From a virus (Duplodnaviria; Heunggongvirae; Uroviricota; Caudoviricetes), in IMG/VR virus record IMGVR_UViG_2585427793_000006, positions 1 through 12,728 of that record: DNA of 12,728 bases; one strand, written 5' to 3'. The position numbers and the translations under genes were made by a program. This document shows positions 2,335 to 12,728 of this stretch, piece by piece. The notes under the pieces were generated by a model. It did no database searches. It was given only the letters and a program-made list of their open reading frames with translations, and was not told the origin of the DNA. The first letter of the stretch is position 1. Every line of letters begins with the position of its first letter.

Positions 2335-2496
2335 ATGTTTGTGAAACCCCTGAAAGGGCGGTCAGTTCCTGACCCTGCCCGTGGAGACCTTTTGCCTTCT
2401 GACGGGCGAAATGTGGAAGAAAACAGCTACTGGTTCCGCCGTATAGCGGCGGGGGATGTGGTACGTGTTAAACAGGATAAGGCTAAAGAATCATGA
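2335..2496 (+). CDS. Small conserved protein (53 aa) immediately upstream of and overlapping the tail sheath gene
   Basis: ATG 2335 to TGA 2494-2496 (MFVKPLKGRSVPDPARGDLLPSDGRNVEENSYWFRRIAAGDVVRVKQDKAKES). The stop overlaps the sheath ATG in an ATGA arrangement. Below the ORF track length cut-off. Mu-like tail operons commonly have a protein of about 50 aa at this position. Confidence 0.55.
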   Translation: MFVKPLKGRSVPDPARGDLLPSDGRNVEENSYWFRRIAAGDVVRVKQDKAKES

Positions 2497-3989
2497 CAAT
2501 AAGTTTTAGTGCTGTTCCGTCGAATACGCTGGTGCCGTTGTTCTACGCCGAGATGGACAATTCTGCGGCAAATACAGCGGTGACCAGCGCGCCTGCATTA
2601 CTGATTGGGCATGCAGGCAACGATGCTGCCATTGAGGTTAACAGCCTGGTGCTGATGCCGTCGGCAGATTATGCCCGTCAGATTTGTGGAGCGGGGAGCC
2701 AGCTGGCGCGTATGGTCGAAGTATACCGTCAGACAGATCCTTTCGGTGAACTGTATGTTATTGCGGTACCGGAAGCCAAAGGGGCGGCGGCAACGGTCAG
2801 GGTGACGGTTACCGGAGAAACAGAGGAAAGCGGCACCCTGAGTCTGTATGTCGGGCGCTCCCGTGTACAGGTGCCTGTGGTGAATGGCGATAATGCCACT
2901 GCGGTTGCCACCGCGATTAAGGAAGCGGTAAATGGTGTTATCACCCTGCCGTTTACGGCGTCATCTGATGCAGGTGTGGTGACACTGACTGCCCGTCATA
3001 AGGGGCTGTATGGTAACGGGCTACCTGTCTGCCTGAATTATTATGGTTCTGGTGGTGGTGAAATTCTGCCTGCGGGACTTCAGGTCGTGACGGAAGCCGG
3101 AACTGCAGGTAGTGGAGCACCTGATCTTACCGCCGCTGTTGCCGCTATGGGCGATGAGGTATTCGATTTTATCGGTCTGCCGTTCAACGATGCCGCCTCC
3201 ATCAATATGATGATGACCGAAATGAATGACAGCAGCGGTCGCTGGAGTTATGCGCGCCAGTTATACGGGCATGTCTATACCGCAAAACTGGGAACGCTGT
3301 CAGAGCTGGTTGGTGCCGGAGATATGCATAATCAGCAACATATCACGCTTGCCGGTTACGAAAAAGAAACCCAGTCGCCTGTCGATGAACTGGTTGCCAG
3401 TCGCCTTGCCCGTGAAGCGGTATTTATCCGGAATGATCCTGCCCGTCCGACACAGACGGGGGAGCTGGTGGGGATGCTTCCGGCACCGAAAGGTAAGCGA
3501 TTCATCATGACAGAGCAGCAGACCCTTTTATCTCACGGCGTGGCGACGGCTTATGTGGAAGGCGGCACGTTGCGGATCCAGCGTTCTGTAACCACCTACA
3601 AAAAGAATGCGTATGGCGTGGCAGACAACAGCTATCTGGACAGTGAAACTCTGCATACCAGTGCATATGTTCTTCGCAAACTGAAATCGGTCATCACAAG
3701 CAAGTACGGACGTCACAAGCTGGCAAATGATGGTACCCGTTTTGGTCCGGGGCAGGCGATTGTCACTCCTGCCGTTATCAAAGGGGAACTTCTGGCGACA
3801 TATCGTCAGATGGAGCGTGCCGGTATTGTGGAAAATTACGATCTGTTTAAACAGTATCTGATAGTTGAGCGTGATGCGGATAACCCGAACCGACTGAATA
3901 CGCTGTTCCCGCCGGATTATGTTAATCAGTTACGTGTCTTTGCGGTGGTTAACCAGTTCCGTCTTCAGTATTCAGAGGAGTCAGCATAA
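2493..3989 (+). CDS. Contractile tail sheath protein (Mu gpL-like)
   Basis: 498 aa, with GAGGAG RBS context and coupling to flanking genes. Size, position before the tube gene and sequence character match myophage sheath proteins. Confidence 0.85.
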   Translation: MTISFSAVPSNTLVPLFYAEMDNSAANTAVTSAPALLIGHAGNDAAIEVNSLVLMPSADYARQICGAGSQLARMVEVYRQTDPFGELYVIAVPEAKGAAATVRVTVTGETEESGTLSLYVGRSRVQVPVVNGDNATAVATAIKEAVNGVITLPFTASSDAGVVTLTARHKGLYGNGLPVCLNYYGSGGGEILPAGLQVVTEAGTAGSGAPDLTAAVAAMGDEVFDFIGLPFNDAASINMMMTEMNDSSGRWSYARQLYGHVYTAKLGTLSELVGAGDMHNQQHITLAGYEKETQSPVDELVASRLAREAVFIRNDPARPTQTGELVGMLPAPKGKRFIMTEQQTLLSHGVATAYVEGGTLRIQRSVTTYKKNAYGVADNSYLDSETLHTSAYVLRKLKSVITSKYGRHKLANDGTRFGPGQAIVTPAVIKGELLATYRQMERAGIVENYDLFKQYLIVERDADNPNRLNTLFPPDYVNQLRVFAVVNQFRLQYSEESA

Positions 3990-4345
3990 TGGCAAAGATC
4001 GCCGGAACCTGTTTTTTTAAAGTGGATGGTCAGCAGTTATCGCTGACAGGTGGCATTGAAGTGCCGATGAACACCAATGTCCGGGATGATGTTGTCGGCA
4101 TGGCAGGGGATGTGGATTACAAGGAGACCTGGCGGTCACCTTACGTTAAAGGCACGTTTAAAGTGCCCAAAAACTTTCCGGTCGACAAAATTACCACATC
4201 AGACCAGATGACGATTACCGCTGAACTGGCAAACGGCATGGTGTATGTGCTTTCGGCTGCATGGCTGCACGGAGAGGCTAACCATAATGCCGAAGAAGGC
4301 ACGGCAGATCTTGAATTCCACGGCGAAGAGGGAGGGTATCAGTAA
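3989..4345 (+). CDS. Tail tube protein (Mu gpM-like)
   Basis: 118 aa. The start overlaps the sheath stop (TAATG) with a GAGGAG RBS. Size and position are typical. Confidence 0.8.
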   Translation: MAKIAGTCFFKVDGQQLSLTGGIEVPMNTNVRDDVVGMAGDVDYKETWRSPYVKGTFKVPKNFPVDKITTSDQMTITAELANGMVYVLSAAWLHGEANHNAEEGTADLEFHGEEGGYQ

Positions 4346-4680
4346 TGGCAATGAACGTTACAGAAATTGTTTTAAAAAAACCGGTGACAGCGCATAACGA
4401 AATGCTGCATGTGCTGGAGTTGCGCGAGCCCACGTATGACGAAATCGAGGCGCTGGGTTTTCCTTTCATTATTTCCGGTGAAGGCAGTATTAAACTGGAC
4501 AGCCAGGTGGCACTGAAATATATCCCGTTGCTGGCGGGGATCCCGCGTTCATCGGCGGCGCAGATGGCAAAACTGGATATTTTTAAGACCAGCATGCAGA
4601 TCCTGCGTTTTTTTACCCAGTCGGAGACGGGAAGCACCTCCGGAAACGACTCTACAATGTTGCCTGGTTCTGGAAACTGA
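4345..4680 (+). CDS. Tail assembly chaperone (short product, G-like)
   Basis: 111 aa ORF between tube and tape measure. Contains a T7 slippery run at 4608-4614 with an open -1 frame downstream. Confidence 0.75.
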   Translation: MAMNVTEIVLKKPVTAHNEMLHVLELREPTYDEIEALGFPFIISGEGSIKLDSQVALKYIPLLAGIPRSSAAQMAKLDIFKTSMQILRFFTQSETGSTSGNDSTMLPGSGN

Positions 4681-11164: not shown

Positions 11165-12123
11165 TGGATTCGTTACAGGATGATTATACAAAGCTGCTGT
11201 ACGGACTGATGCCGCCGGGGCCTGCATGGAGCGATACCGACGGCGTGCTTGATGGTCTGGCACCATCGCTTGTACGTGTTCATCAGCGGACTGATGAACT
11301 GATGGCTGAAATCGATCCTGGTCAGTCAACAGAGCTGATTGAACGTTATGAAGAATTGTATGGTTTACCTGACACCTGCTCTCCTGTTGGAGCCCAGACA
11401 TTACGCCAGCGTCAGCAACGGCTGGAAGCAAAAGCCAATGTGGCTGGTGGCATAAATGAGCAGTTCTTCCTGGAGCAGCTTGAGGCGCTGGGATATACCG
11501 GCGTGACGATCGAACAGTTCCAGCACCTGGATGCAAGCCCCGATCCGGAATGGGGTGATCGCTGGCGTTATTTCTGGCGTGTGACGTTGCCGGTGGATGC
11601 CGGTGCTCAGTGGCAGACATGTTCGGACACCTGTAACACACCGATCCGGACGTGGGGTGATACGGTTGCGGAATGCGTGATTAATAAATTATGTCCGTCG
11701 CATACTGTTGTCCTTTTTGCATATCCGGATGAGTCTGGTGAAGGGCAACAAGCCGCCCTGACTATAAACAGCCTCTCCTTTCAGGCCGGACACAAGACGA
11801 CTGAGCCATTAGCGATTAATCATACAGGTGTTCATTTTGCGGTTGTTCCGGCACTGACAGGTAAGCCGCTGACAATTAACCGGATTAACTTTTATGCCGC
11901 CCGTCCGATGGCAGAACCACTGGTACTCAGCAGGGCGCAATTGCACTCAGGTCTGCCGACAACGGACCCCATGACCATGAACAGCGCACAGTTGCAGACG
12001 GGATACAGGACCCGCTCCCCCGTACCGGTTAACAGTATGCAGTTGCAGACAGCCAGCAGAACCCGTGAACCGTTATTGATTAATCACCCGGGACTGCATT
12101 TTGCTGTGGTCACGTCCGAATGA
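11164..12123 (+). CDS. Tail protein of the Mu gp48 / P2 gpI / YmfQ (DUF2313) type with an unusual repeat-containing C-terminal extension of about 125 aa
   Basis: The N-terminal ~190 aa (...LLYGLMPPGPAWS...) fit the DUF2313 family. The C-terminus has degenerate repeats (EPLAINHTGVHFAVV, KPLTINRINFY, EPLVLSRAQLHSG, MNSAQLQTG, VNSMQLQTA, EPLLINHPGLHFAVV). Confidence 0.75.
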   Translation: MDSLQDDYTKLLYGLMPPGPAWSDTDGVLDGLAPSLVRVHQRTDELMAEIDPGQSTELIERYEELYGLPDTCSPVGAQTLRQRQQRLEAKANVAGGINEQFFLEQLEALGYTGVTIEQFQHLDASPDPEWGDRWRYFWRVTLPVDAGAQWQTCSDTCNTPIRTWGDTVAECVINKLCPSHTVVLFAYPDESGEGQQAALTINSLSFQAGHKTTEPLAINHTGVHFAVVPALTGKPLTINRINFYAARPMAEPLVLSRAQLHSGLPTTDPMTMNSAQLQTGYRTRSPVPVNSMQLQTASRTREPLLINHPGLHFAVVTSE

Positions 12124-12146
12124 CATAAAATAAAAGGAGAGCCGCT

Positions 12147-12728
12147 TTGAATATTATTAAACTCGAAAGTTTTCGACAAATTCCGGCGAATGAGGGATTG
12201 TGCGAGAACTATTATTCAACAAATATTATTTCAGCACTGAACGAAAACGGTGTCACGCTTATCAATGATATGTCCGGTTCTGTAACATCCGTCTGTCGTG
12301 GCACTCAGGCCGTAAATACTGTAGAAAGAACGGGGCTGATTTTCACGACACCCTCATATGTCACACTGTACAGCACACTTCCGGACTTAAAAGCCTCAGC
12401 TGTACAGCTGGGATTTCGTCTGACATTAAGTGCGGGAAAGAAATATTCATCTTCGCCATCCCACATCAGGATTAATGGCTATTCATTTACAACCCCGTAT
12501 CCTGATGAAGCAGCCAGTTATTACTATGAAATTTTCGCAACGCGAAACGAAAACGGCTATGTCTCAGCCAGTCTGTACTGCAACCGCTCATTAGTTGGAA
12601 ATACATCGTTTTATGTACCAGATGACCGGACTGACAAAATTCAGGTGAGTATTGGTAGTGGTGACAATATTTTTTCATCGGGTGCATCCGGCACGTTAAT
12701 GCTGGGTGATATGTACTGTGGAACAGTG
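12147..12728 (+). CDS. Partial ORF running off the window (5' end present), unknown function. The position suggests a tail fibre or receptor-binding protein, but the sequence is atypical
   Basis: AAGGAG at 12134-12139 followed 7 nt later by TTG 12147. Frame open for 194 codons to the window edge. Markedly lower GC than the tail genes. The product contains four Cys residues. Absent from the ORF track because it is incomplete. Confidence 0.5.
   Translation, partial: MNIIKLESFRQIPANEGLCENYYSTNIISALNENGVTLINDMSGSVTSVCRGTQAVNTVERTGLIFTTPSYVTLYSTLPDLKASAVQLGFRLTLSAGKKYSSSPSHIRINGYSFTTPYPDEAASYYYEIFATRNENGYVSASLYCNRSLVGNTSFYVPDDRTDKIQVSIGSGDNIFSSGASGTLMLGDMYCGTV

Follow-up and report, generated by a model that had tools for sequence, protein, structure and literature searches.

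The window analyzed here is an entire draft contig of 12,728 bp from E. coli 3-373-03_S4, so that nothing further can be read on either flank, and two phages meet within it at 2116|2117. Positions 1-2116 are the right end of a Mu-like transposable prophage of ∼34 kb, with 99.7% identity to a Mu-like prophage of E. coli E300082 that has a head and tail of its own as well as MuA/MuB-type genes, and positions 2117-12728 are from a phiP27-like lambdoid prophage, with 99.4 to 99.97% identity to prophages in complete E. coli genomes (12 one-piece matches among those listed). The features, all on the plus strand, are as follows.

1-45, +, 3′ end of the Mu-like tail-fiber gene, running off the contig start; 99.7% collinear with positions 20001-20045 of a Mu-like prophage locus (L004), the end of a 'phage tail protein' CDS at 18975-20045
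48-593, +, Tfa, tail-fiber assembly protein of the Mu-like prophage (Pfam Caudo_TAP, E=3e-23; annotated Tfa in E300082)
580-1050, +, side-tail-fiber gene fragment, N-terminal domain only (Pfam phage_tail_N, E=7e-25)
1192-1377, +, com, translational activator of mom (Pfam Zn_ribbon_Com)
1298-2035, +, mom, DNA modification gene and last in the Mu-like prophage (Pfam Mom, E=4e-75; matches Mu and D108 mom)
2035-2116, +, attR, right end of the Mu-like prophage; contains three GTATCAAAW repeats and terminates in ...TTTTGCGCGCTTTA
2117-2325, +, phiP27-like tail-terminator gene, 3′ remnant coding for residues 119-187 of 187 (BLASTP, 68/69 identity to WP_000779447.1)
2335-2496, +, DUF2635 small tail protein (Pfam DUF2635, E=4e-19)
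2493-3989, +, tail sheath (Pfam Phage_sheath_1, domain II and C-terminal domain)
3989-4345, +, tail tube (Pfam Tail_tube, E=8e-34)
4345-4680, +, tail assembly chaperone (Pfam Phage_TAC_7)
4765-6678, +, tape measure protein (Pfam PhageMin_Tail, E=7e-44)
6694-8085, +, DNA-circularization (Mu gpN-like) protein (Pfam DNA_circ_N, E=2e-36)
8082-9137, +, baseplate hub, Mu gpP/gp44-like (Pfam GpP-like_1st, Gp44-like_2nd, GpP_4th)
9137-9670, +, baseplate spike, Mu gp45-like (Pfam Phage_Mu_Gp45, E=2e-26)
9676-10089, +, baseplate wedge, gp46-like (Pfam GP46, E=1e-34)
10082-11164, +, baseplate J, gp47-like (Pfam Baseplate_J, E=1e-52)
11164-12123, +, Mu gp48/YmfQ-like wedge protein (Pfam Phage_Mu_Gp48, residues 13-187)
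11780-12728, +, start of a fiber cassette common to both prophages, inside which the contig stops (97.2% identity to L004 17507-18455)
12141-12728, +, 5′ part of a fiber-associated ORF running off the contig end, corresponding to a 1050-nt 'hypothetical protein' CDS after the YmfQ gene in two phiP27-like loci (L003 and L001); no Pfam match

The Mu-like segment is organized with com and mom as the last genes before the end, as in Mu and D108, to both of which the com-mom region has about 88% DNA identity. In the window and in annotated relatives, com is preceded by the fiber gene, tfa, and the side-fiber fragment, and neither a gin gene nor an invertible G segment is visible in either. The counterpart of the side-fiber fragment is annotated in E300082 and TD225-C4 as a pseudogene without its C terminus, and the window Tfa and that of the phiP27-like prophage in E200086 have 94.5% identity.

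GTATCAAAW matches the whole window only three times, at 2035, 2070, and 2092 (0.24 expected), and recurs in inverted orientation at the left end of the element in E300082 and at other loci; such presumed transposase-binding motifs, repeated and inverted at both ends, are a second likeness to Mu and D108. The right terminus, ...GCGCGCTTTA, is identical at 4 insertion sites, beyond which the flanks diverge, and about 19 independent insertions, whose flanks are unrelated, all have an unchanged left terminus, TATGAAGAGG.... Elements that share one transposase or have a near-identical version of it occupy about 20 different sites, several of them within other prophages. The same element is present in E300082 and TD225-C4, with mhpA disrupted in one of these strains and rlmB in the other; it codes for a repressor, a Ner-like protein, transposase, MuB, Gam, and Mor, followed by lysis, head, tail, and fiber genes, com, and mom. 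The MuA/MuB-type genes thus known from the 99.7%-identical E300082 element and from TD225-C4 lie outside the window; the transposase of these relatives is a 695-aa Mu transposase C-terminal domain protein, and the MuB-type protein is an AAA ATPase with a Phage-MuB_C domain. Three elements for which both flanks are available, none of which is the insertion in the window, have 4-bp target duplications (GGCA, GATA, and TGTA). Terminal com-mom followed by an end with mirrored motifs, precise invariant termini, many unrelated sites, and a short target duplication in those three elements make the upstream element Mu-like, but it is not Mu itself, having TA...TA termini with GTATCAAA repeats rather than TG...CA ends, and duplications of 4 bp rather than 5 bp where these are seen.

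The structural genes of this element have almost no DNA-level similarity to known phages in the first 24.9 kb, which spans the early region and left end through the tail tape-measure gene. The Mu-like Yersinia phages vB_YpM_5 and vB_YpM_6 are 88.7% identical across window positions 1202-2116, terminus included; for the stretch of the E. coli element that comprises left end, repressor, and transposase, the figure is 91%. Of the 24.9 kb, only about 23% matches these phages, and the head and tail genes therein do not.

Downstream of the terminus, Pfam assignments place a contractile tail and baseplate set in Mu order on the plus strand from 2335 to 12123, in agreement with the preliminary description, which had also correctly reported that only fiber/Tfa genes and com-mom, with no head or packaging genes, lie upstream within the window. 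Its view that the tail genes are all translationally coupled does not hold, as there are gaps of 84 nt (4681-4764), 15 nt (6679-6693), and 5 nt (9671-9675), with the remaining junctions overlapping by 1-8 nt, and the tail's phage begins not at 2335 but at 2117, with the terminator remnant. The upstream genes had been judged foreign to the tail module, and the boundary does coincide with the terminus of a transposable element; the Mu-like prophage has a sheath of its own, with which the window sheath shares only 36% identity, so the tail module is that of a different phage.

The closest named relative of the tail module is the Stx2e-converting enterobacteria phage phiP27 (NC_003356), deposited as a complete phage genome, with 95.8% DNA identity over 2117-11733 and an identical gene order from terminator to gp48 in late genes L43-L53, which also have the same order of Pfam families. 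The window differs from phiP27 in having no counterpart of codons 1-118 of the L43-type terminator gene or of anything that precedes that gene, and in having a different cassette for the gp48 3′ end and the fiber genes beyond 11733. The E. coli phiP27-like prophages sit between yccA and a tRNA-Ser gene next to hyaA, and those examined have TerB/DUF3927-type genes in place of phiP27 stx2e. In the E200086 and AST19 prophages, terminase, portal, protease, capsid, connectors, and a full terminator lie directly upstream of the tail genes, and the AST19 prophage, read to its far end, has an integrase there; phiP27 has the same layout. This head and packaging set (P27-family TerS, TerL, portal, HK97 protease, capsid, and connectors) was thus found upstream of the terminator in the close relatives examined, at the position that in the window is taken by the Mu-like right end. 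More distantly, the Shigella serotype-converting phages SfV, SfI, SfII, and SfIV share the window's order of Mu-type tail genes, placed after an HK97-type head, and have about 77% DNA identity from sheath to tape measure and none past the tape measure at the sensitivity used. SfIV has been reported to be similar to phiP27 and to have HK97-family head proteins (PMC3851460).

The two similarities abut precisely, with those to phiP27 and to the complete-genome prophages both starting exactly at 2117, and that to the E300082 element ending at 2116 after its blast alignment, which ran on to 2119, was trimmed back. The junction lies within the tail-terminator gene, whose uninterrupted sequence at a phiP27-like locus (L003) reads ...GGCACCCTGCTGGATCTG. 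Window positions 2116-2325 correspond to terminator residues 119-187, the first 118 codons being absent, and an ATG in frame with them is formed at 2116 by the junction. Because only the last 69 of 187 codons are present, the tail set is without a functional terminator; the intact terminator of a phiP27-like late operon is absent from the window, and its tail operon is a disrupted member of the phiP27-like group rather than a nonmember. The junction is real: its DNA is read in three Logan assemblies as well as in one further NCBI contig (L006), and its ORF, for which the E. coli 3-373-03_S4_C2/C3 annotation is a 69-aa 'sb11 domain protein', has three NCBI protein accessions on four contigs, the longest of which is the 12,728-bp contig analyzed here. 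It is absent from the complete E. coli genomes in the collection searched.

At the right-hand side of the window, the gp48-like protein is 319 aa, with a C-terminal extension, compared with 196 aa in phiP27, and similarity of its gene to phiP27 ends at 11733. The sequence from 11780 onward matches the Mu-like prophage's own gp48 3′ end and next gene (L004 17507-18455), and this cassette has 96-97% identity between the two prophage types, the range for the two contig ends together being 94-97%. Both contig ends lie inside this cassette, and its near-identity in the two prophages accounts for the stop of the draft assembly at both ends; the lack of head genes in the window follows from the Mu-like insertion together with this assembly break.

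The window is therefore best read as the right-hand junction of a nested prophage, a Mu-like phage within a phiP27-type tail-terminator gene, to which we assign a probability of about 0.85. The resident would be a phiP27-type prophage with lambdoid regulation, an HK97-type head, and a Mu-type contractile tail, and the ∼34-kb Mu-like phage, with its MuA-type DDE transposase and MuB-type ATPase, would have entered the terminator gene within or just after codons 119-120, the exact point being set by the size of the target duplication. Positions 1-2116 would then be the Mu-like fiber 3′ end, tfa, fiber fragment, com, mom, and attR, and positions 2117-12728 the distal part of the resident late operon. 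The resident head and packaging genes are expected in this strain beyond the Mu-like prophage, about 34 kb upstream, and the resident is probably crippled, the insertion dividing its terminator gene and breaking up its late operon; that its tail genes have stayed intact suggests that the insertion is recent. The preliminary description fairly stated that the window alone cannot discriminate among its proposals, and it is comparison with other genomes that does so. Its suggestion of a rearranged or compound prophage came nearest, although what is indicated is one prophage nested in another and not a tandem copy or a remnant.

An unlikely alternative is that insertion of the Mu-like phage was accompanied by a neighboring deletion or inversion, as replicative transposition is known to cause, and that the head, packaging, and early genes were thereby lost or relocated, leaving a true tail-only remnant. 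The right junction alone is documented, and the left junction was not found, as this alternative would allow. The head-side target sequence expected there is ...GGTGGCACCCTGCT, the first ∼120 terminator codons, and simple insertion predicts a GGTGGCACCCTGCT|TATGAAGAGGTAAATC junction. Proteins spanning it (terminator residues 1-120 followed by MKR or by a 24-residue read-through) had no exact match in a 15-billion-protein collection, and phiP27-type head genes were present in none of 20 left-flank contigs obtained via two transposase variants; these look-ups used exact sequences only and blocks with the longest contigs only, and with such low sensitivity they are weak negative evidence. The contig, however, runs straight through the right terminus, so that the right end appears, as far as a draft assembly can indicate, to have a single genomic context; an inversion leaving a second Mu-like copy would be expected to have broken the contig there. 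Tail genes that are all intact, with 99.97% identity to those of an uninterrupted prophage, are moreover what a simple and recent insertion would leave.

A cluster of the R-type tailocin kind, kept for killing competitors and raised earlier as a tail-only bacteriocin, is very improbable. Like R-pyocins, the window has a complete-looking set of contractile sheath, tube, and baseplate genes and no visible head genes, but here their absence is explained by insertion and contig break. The relatives examined, at 99.4 to 99.97% DNA identity, are full prophages with terminase, portal, capsid genes, and an intact terminator immediately upstream, and the phiP27 deposit is a complete phage genome. The module opens with a terminator gene cut exactly at the transposon terminus, and next to it there is neither a dedicated regulator nor a lysis cassette. 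Tail-terminator proteins have an established role in tail completion, and without one this step should fail.

It is similarly hard to credit the earlier proposal of a single hybrid phage whose integrated map places fiber genes, com, and mom before the tail. The parent type of the tail is indeed a mosaic of lambdoid regulation, HK97-type head, and Mu-type tail, and fiber cassettes are common to both phage types, but the 2116|2117 boundary lies inside an ORF, from which 118 codons are removed, exactly at the invariant terminus of a mobile element found at about 20 other sites, and the arrangement matched none of the complete E. coli genomes or phage records searched. An assembly chimera joining reads of two unlinked prophages is scarcely plausible, even though the draft contig is short and has repeats at its ends and E300082 carries both prophage types at separate loci, because the junction recurs in the independent assemblies and accessions noted above and the join is at the exact element terminus, with no shared breakpoint sequence to mislead an assembler.

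Under the nested-prophage reading, the intact, promoter-less tail operon lies immediately downstream of a Mu-like late com-mom unit, with no predicted transcriptional terminator between the two, and is flanked by about 3-kb direct repeats of the fiber cassette. There is a slim chance that induction of the Mu-like prophage could read through to give a second, headless tail set, as tailocin-like or mixed particles, or that recombination between the fiber cassettes could give a chimeric phage.

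The apparent tail-only cluster results from a transposable phage having inserted into another prophage and from the assembly breaking at a fibre cassette that the two share. Both components are of known kinds, one a prophage of the phiP27/SfV type, which combines an HK97-type head with a Mu-type tail, and the other a Mu-like transposable phage. The window carries a continuous series of ORFs on the + strand (ORF scan with Pfam assignments), and Pfam bears out the gene content given in the preliminary description, with a tail and baseplate set from 2335 and fibre, tfa, and com-mom genes upstream; its statement that the set is translationally coupled throughout fails at three junctions, where the ORFs do not overlap and are separated by gaps of 84, 15, and 5 nt. 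An ORF at 2053-2325, 5' of the DUF2635 gene, has no Pfam match.

Genes of the window with Pfam assignments
48-593, + strand, Tfa (Caudo_TAP)
580-1050, + strand, prophage tail-fibre N-terminal fragment
1192-1377, + strand, Com
1298-2035, + strand, Mom
2335-2496, + strand, DUF2635
2493-3989, + strand, sheath
3989-4345, + strand, tube
4345-4680, + strand, assembly chaperone
4765-6678, + strand, tape measure
6694-8085, + strand, DNA_circ_N (Mu gpN-like)
8082-9137, + strand, GpP-like hub
9137-9670, + strand, Mu Gp45
9676-10089, + strand, GP46
10082-11164, + strand, Baseplate_J
11164-12123, + strand, Mu Gp48

The two components meet at 2116/2117. In a megablast search of phage records, the Stx2e phage phiP27 is 95.8% identical to window 2117-11733 (phiP27 28982-38628, starting inside gene L43 and ending near the end of L53), and the phiP27-like locus of E. 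coli E200086 matches 2117-12728 at 99.97% identity. Among the matches listed for complete E. coli genomes, 12 (H4 to H15) span 2117-12728 in one piece at 99.2 to 99.4%, and 24 complete E. coli genome records cover at least 80% of the window. The phiP27-like matches, whether in phiP27, the complete genomes, or E200086, all start at 2117, and no complete E. coli genome in the collection searched crosses the junction. In E. coli E300082, the end of a ~34-kb Mu-like prophage matches window 1-2119 at 99.7% identity.

The 90-codon ORF at 2053-2325 is identical at 68 of 69 positions to residues 119-187 of a 187-aa tail terminator, with nothing more N-terminal. The uninterrupted terminator gene, in an intact prophage locus, reads ...GGCACC CTG CTG GAT CTG..., whereas the window reads ...GCGCGCTTTA/TG CTG GAT CTG (slash at the junction), so the A at 2116 does not come from the target. 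This last A of the element and the TG from the target create an in-frame ATG and with it a 69-aa orphan ORF (2116-2325) with no obvious ribosome-binding site upstream, which is annotated as an 'sb11 domain protein' in source assemblies and is recorded in E. coli 3-373-03_S4_C2 and C3 and in a third accession. The longest contig recorded for this ORF measures 12,728 bp, so the window makes up a whole draft contig.

The prophage that owns the tail module is seen in E200086 and AST19, where the region upstream of the equivalent of 2117 codes for a Q-type antiterminator, tRNAs, holins and an endolysin, an HNH protein, a P27-family TerS, TerL, and portal, and then for an HK97 protease, major capsid protein, connector, head closure protein, a 174-aa protein, and the full 187-aa tail terminator. 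Past the terminator are the tail module as in the window, two fibre-region genes, tfa, and a tRNA-Ser gene by hyaA. At the far end of the AST19 prophage an integrase adjoins yccA, and exo, dicB, and a region of repressor and replication genes are also present; the whole is a complete lambdoid prophage, about 41 kb long. The late region of phiP27 has the same layout as those of the E200086 and AST19 prophages. According to the preliminary description, a complete head and packaging module plus an integrase adjoining the operon would count against its reading, and close relatives have this arrangement. All tail ORFs of the window are full-length relative to those of E200086 and AST19, which suggests that the interruption is recent. 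The tails of SfV and phiP27 are reportedly Mu-like, as the Pfam hits obtained here also indicate. A literature search on the combination of phiP27 and Mu-like tails turned up nothing of direct use; the SfIV paper supports the phiP27/SfV relationship and HK97-type heads only (PMC3851460).

The Mu-like element of E300082, which splits mhpA, has early genes for a CI-type repressor, a ner-like protein, a 695-aa transposase with a Mu transposase C-terminal domain, and a MuB-type AAA ATPase, together with gam, gemA, and mor, and later genes comprising a lysis cassette, a Mu-type terminase, portal (DUF935), gpF, protease, and gpT head genes. It has its own tail set, running from DUF2635, sheath, and tube to gp48, followed by fibre, tfa, a fibre fragment, com, and mom. 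In TD225-C4, a 98.6%-identical element splits rlmB. Judging from sequence comparisons, the element is a mosaic: Yersinia phages vB_YpM_5/6 are 91% identical to its left end, repressor, and transposase region, Mu, SfMu, and D108 are about 85 to 87% identical to its semi-essential region, and Mu and D108 are about 88% identical to its com-mom, while DNA-level matches to its head and tail genes are almost absent from the phage collection (searched with the first 24.9 kb). The element's own tail was rejected as the source of the tail genes in the window, as the two sheaths are only 36% identical.

The left end of the element, 5'-TATGAAGAGGTAAATCATTTGATAC..., is invariant across about 19 independent insertions with unrelated flanks, which were retrieved via two transposase variants, and the window, E300082, TD225-C4, and locus L042 share one right end, ...GGTATCAAATGATTTTGCGCGCTTTA-3', beyond which their flanks diverge. 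Additional right-end flanks were collected via a Com protein look-up. The motif GTATCAAAW is present in three copies in the window, all within 2035-2100 (0.24 expected), and is present inverted at the left end of the element. Mu has TG...CA termini and a 5-bp duplication, whereas this lineage has 5'-TA...TA-3' termini (TATGAAGAGG...GCGCGCTTTA) and target duplications of 4 bp (GGCA, GATA, and TGTA) in three of the three elements with both flanks. An alternative model that starts the left end at ATGAAG and has a 5-bp duplication was discarded, because every insertion site would then need a T just ahead of the element, and the model fails in L042.

The precise terminus and the truncated target gene show that Mu-type transposition put the ~34-kb phage into the tail-terminator gene. 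The resident prophage would then be unable to make a full-length tail terminator, and its late operon would be split by about 34 kb, so infectious virions should not form. Between the mom stop (2035) and the tail genes the + strand has no predicted intrinsic terminator, so read-through from the Mu-like late promoter into the tail operon is conceivable.

Simple insertion is by far the most likely present state of the locus. The left junction is predicted to be 5'-GGTGGCACCCTGCT/TATGAAGAGGTAAATCATTTGATAC-3'. Exact protein look-ups gave no match to three predicted left-junction proteins, and a homology search with the predicted 123-aa junction protein returned full-length proteins or unrelated frameshifted variants and nothing else. 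Look-ups via a representative of the Mu-like repressor and two transposase variants yielded 24 left-end loci at about 19 distinct sites, none of the 24 in a phiP27-type terminator gene, and in the transposase look-ups (blocks with the longest contigs) no phiP27-type head genes lie beside a Mu-like left end. A Mu-mediated adjacent deletion at this locus, where the right junction is the one read directly, is improbable. An assembly chimera as the source of the junction is argued against by the same junction on a near-identical 12,453-bp contig (GCA_000700465.1) and in three Logan run assemblies. Of the readings offered in the preliminary description, a single hybrid phage is contradicted by the breakpoint, which is intragenic and at the exact terminus of the element, and a tailocin by its defining features, which the cluster lacks.

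The fibre cassettes, from the 3' end of gp48 to tfa (roughly 3 kb), are 96 to 97% identical between the two prophage types, except over about 0.5 kb where they diverge. At its 3' end (11780-12728) the window matches the 3' end of gp48 and the next gene of the Mu-like prophage at 97% identity, and at its 5' end (1-568) it matches the Tfa of the E200086 phiP27-like prophage at 94.5%. Because the cassettes are near-identical, both contig ends lie in a sequence present in two copies, at which assembly from short reads breaks off. The finding holds up but is ordinary, with no unexpected biology; its main value is a corrected interpretation of a tail-only cluster in a short draft contig, and it advises caution in screens of draft genomes for tailocins or "hybrid" prophages. 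The Mu-like lineage is active in E. coli, where it often disrupts other prophages.

The shared cassette consists of a gp48 C-terminal extension, fibre-region genes, and tfa, at 94 to 97% identity; the gp48 of phiP27 is different and shorter (196 aa versus 319 aa). In the inferred genome order, the copies would be direct repeats flanking the whole window, and recombination between them could delete it.

Copies of the shared fibre cassette
11733-12728 and 1-593, window
17507-20568, E300082 Mu-like prophage (L004)
27663-30643, E200086 phiP27-like locus (L001)

Over the aligned 2117-12728 the window exceeds the E200086 copy by 1 nt, and in E200086 the gpP-like and gp45-like genes (L001 23966-25553 versus window 8082-9670) have abnormal overlapping annotated boundaries, suggesting a frameshift in these baseplate genes; in the window they are intact (1056 nt and 534 nt), as in phiP27. 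The tail chaperone ORF (4345-4680) is 111 aa in the window versus 109 aa in most relatives, and the 84-nt gap between it and the tape-measure gene (window 4681-4764) is the usual location for a frameshift-extended chaperone product. GATC sites are clustered upstream of com (window 1081-1135), in ...GACGATCGATACC... and ...TATCGATCGTCG..., recalling the Dam-methylation-dependent control region of the Mu mom promoter.

An exact look-up finds the 245-aa form of Mom in the source assembly only, and 235-aa forms have no record in the exact protein look-up. An identical 61-aa Com is present in Mu-like prophages with at least three right-end types in the sequence after mom (L036-L045), namely classic Mu (...CGTGCGCCGCTTCA), a GTATCAAA-repeat type as in the window, and a ATCTTGAA-repeat type that terminates in the same TTTTGCGCGCTTTA. 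CP057408.1 has three com-mom copies in one genome, two of them with the ATCTTGAA-type end. In L042 (GCA_050405645.1, ~695-4925) a Mu-like element with a 4-bp duplication is reduced by internal deletion to about 4.2 kb; it keeps both termini, the repressor, the ner-like gene, a DUF4376 gene, com, and mom. This lineage, or elements with the same Com, is recurrently inserted inside other prophages (L015, L021, L028, and L037): in L015 and L028 these are lambdoid, with insertions in the late-regulatory region and the replication/RusA region, respectively, in L021 the insertion is in P2-like tail genes, and in L037 it adjoins portal/terminase-family genes, apparently of another prophage.
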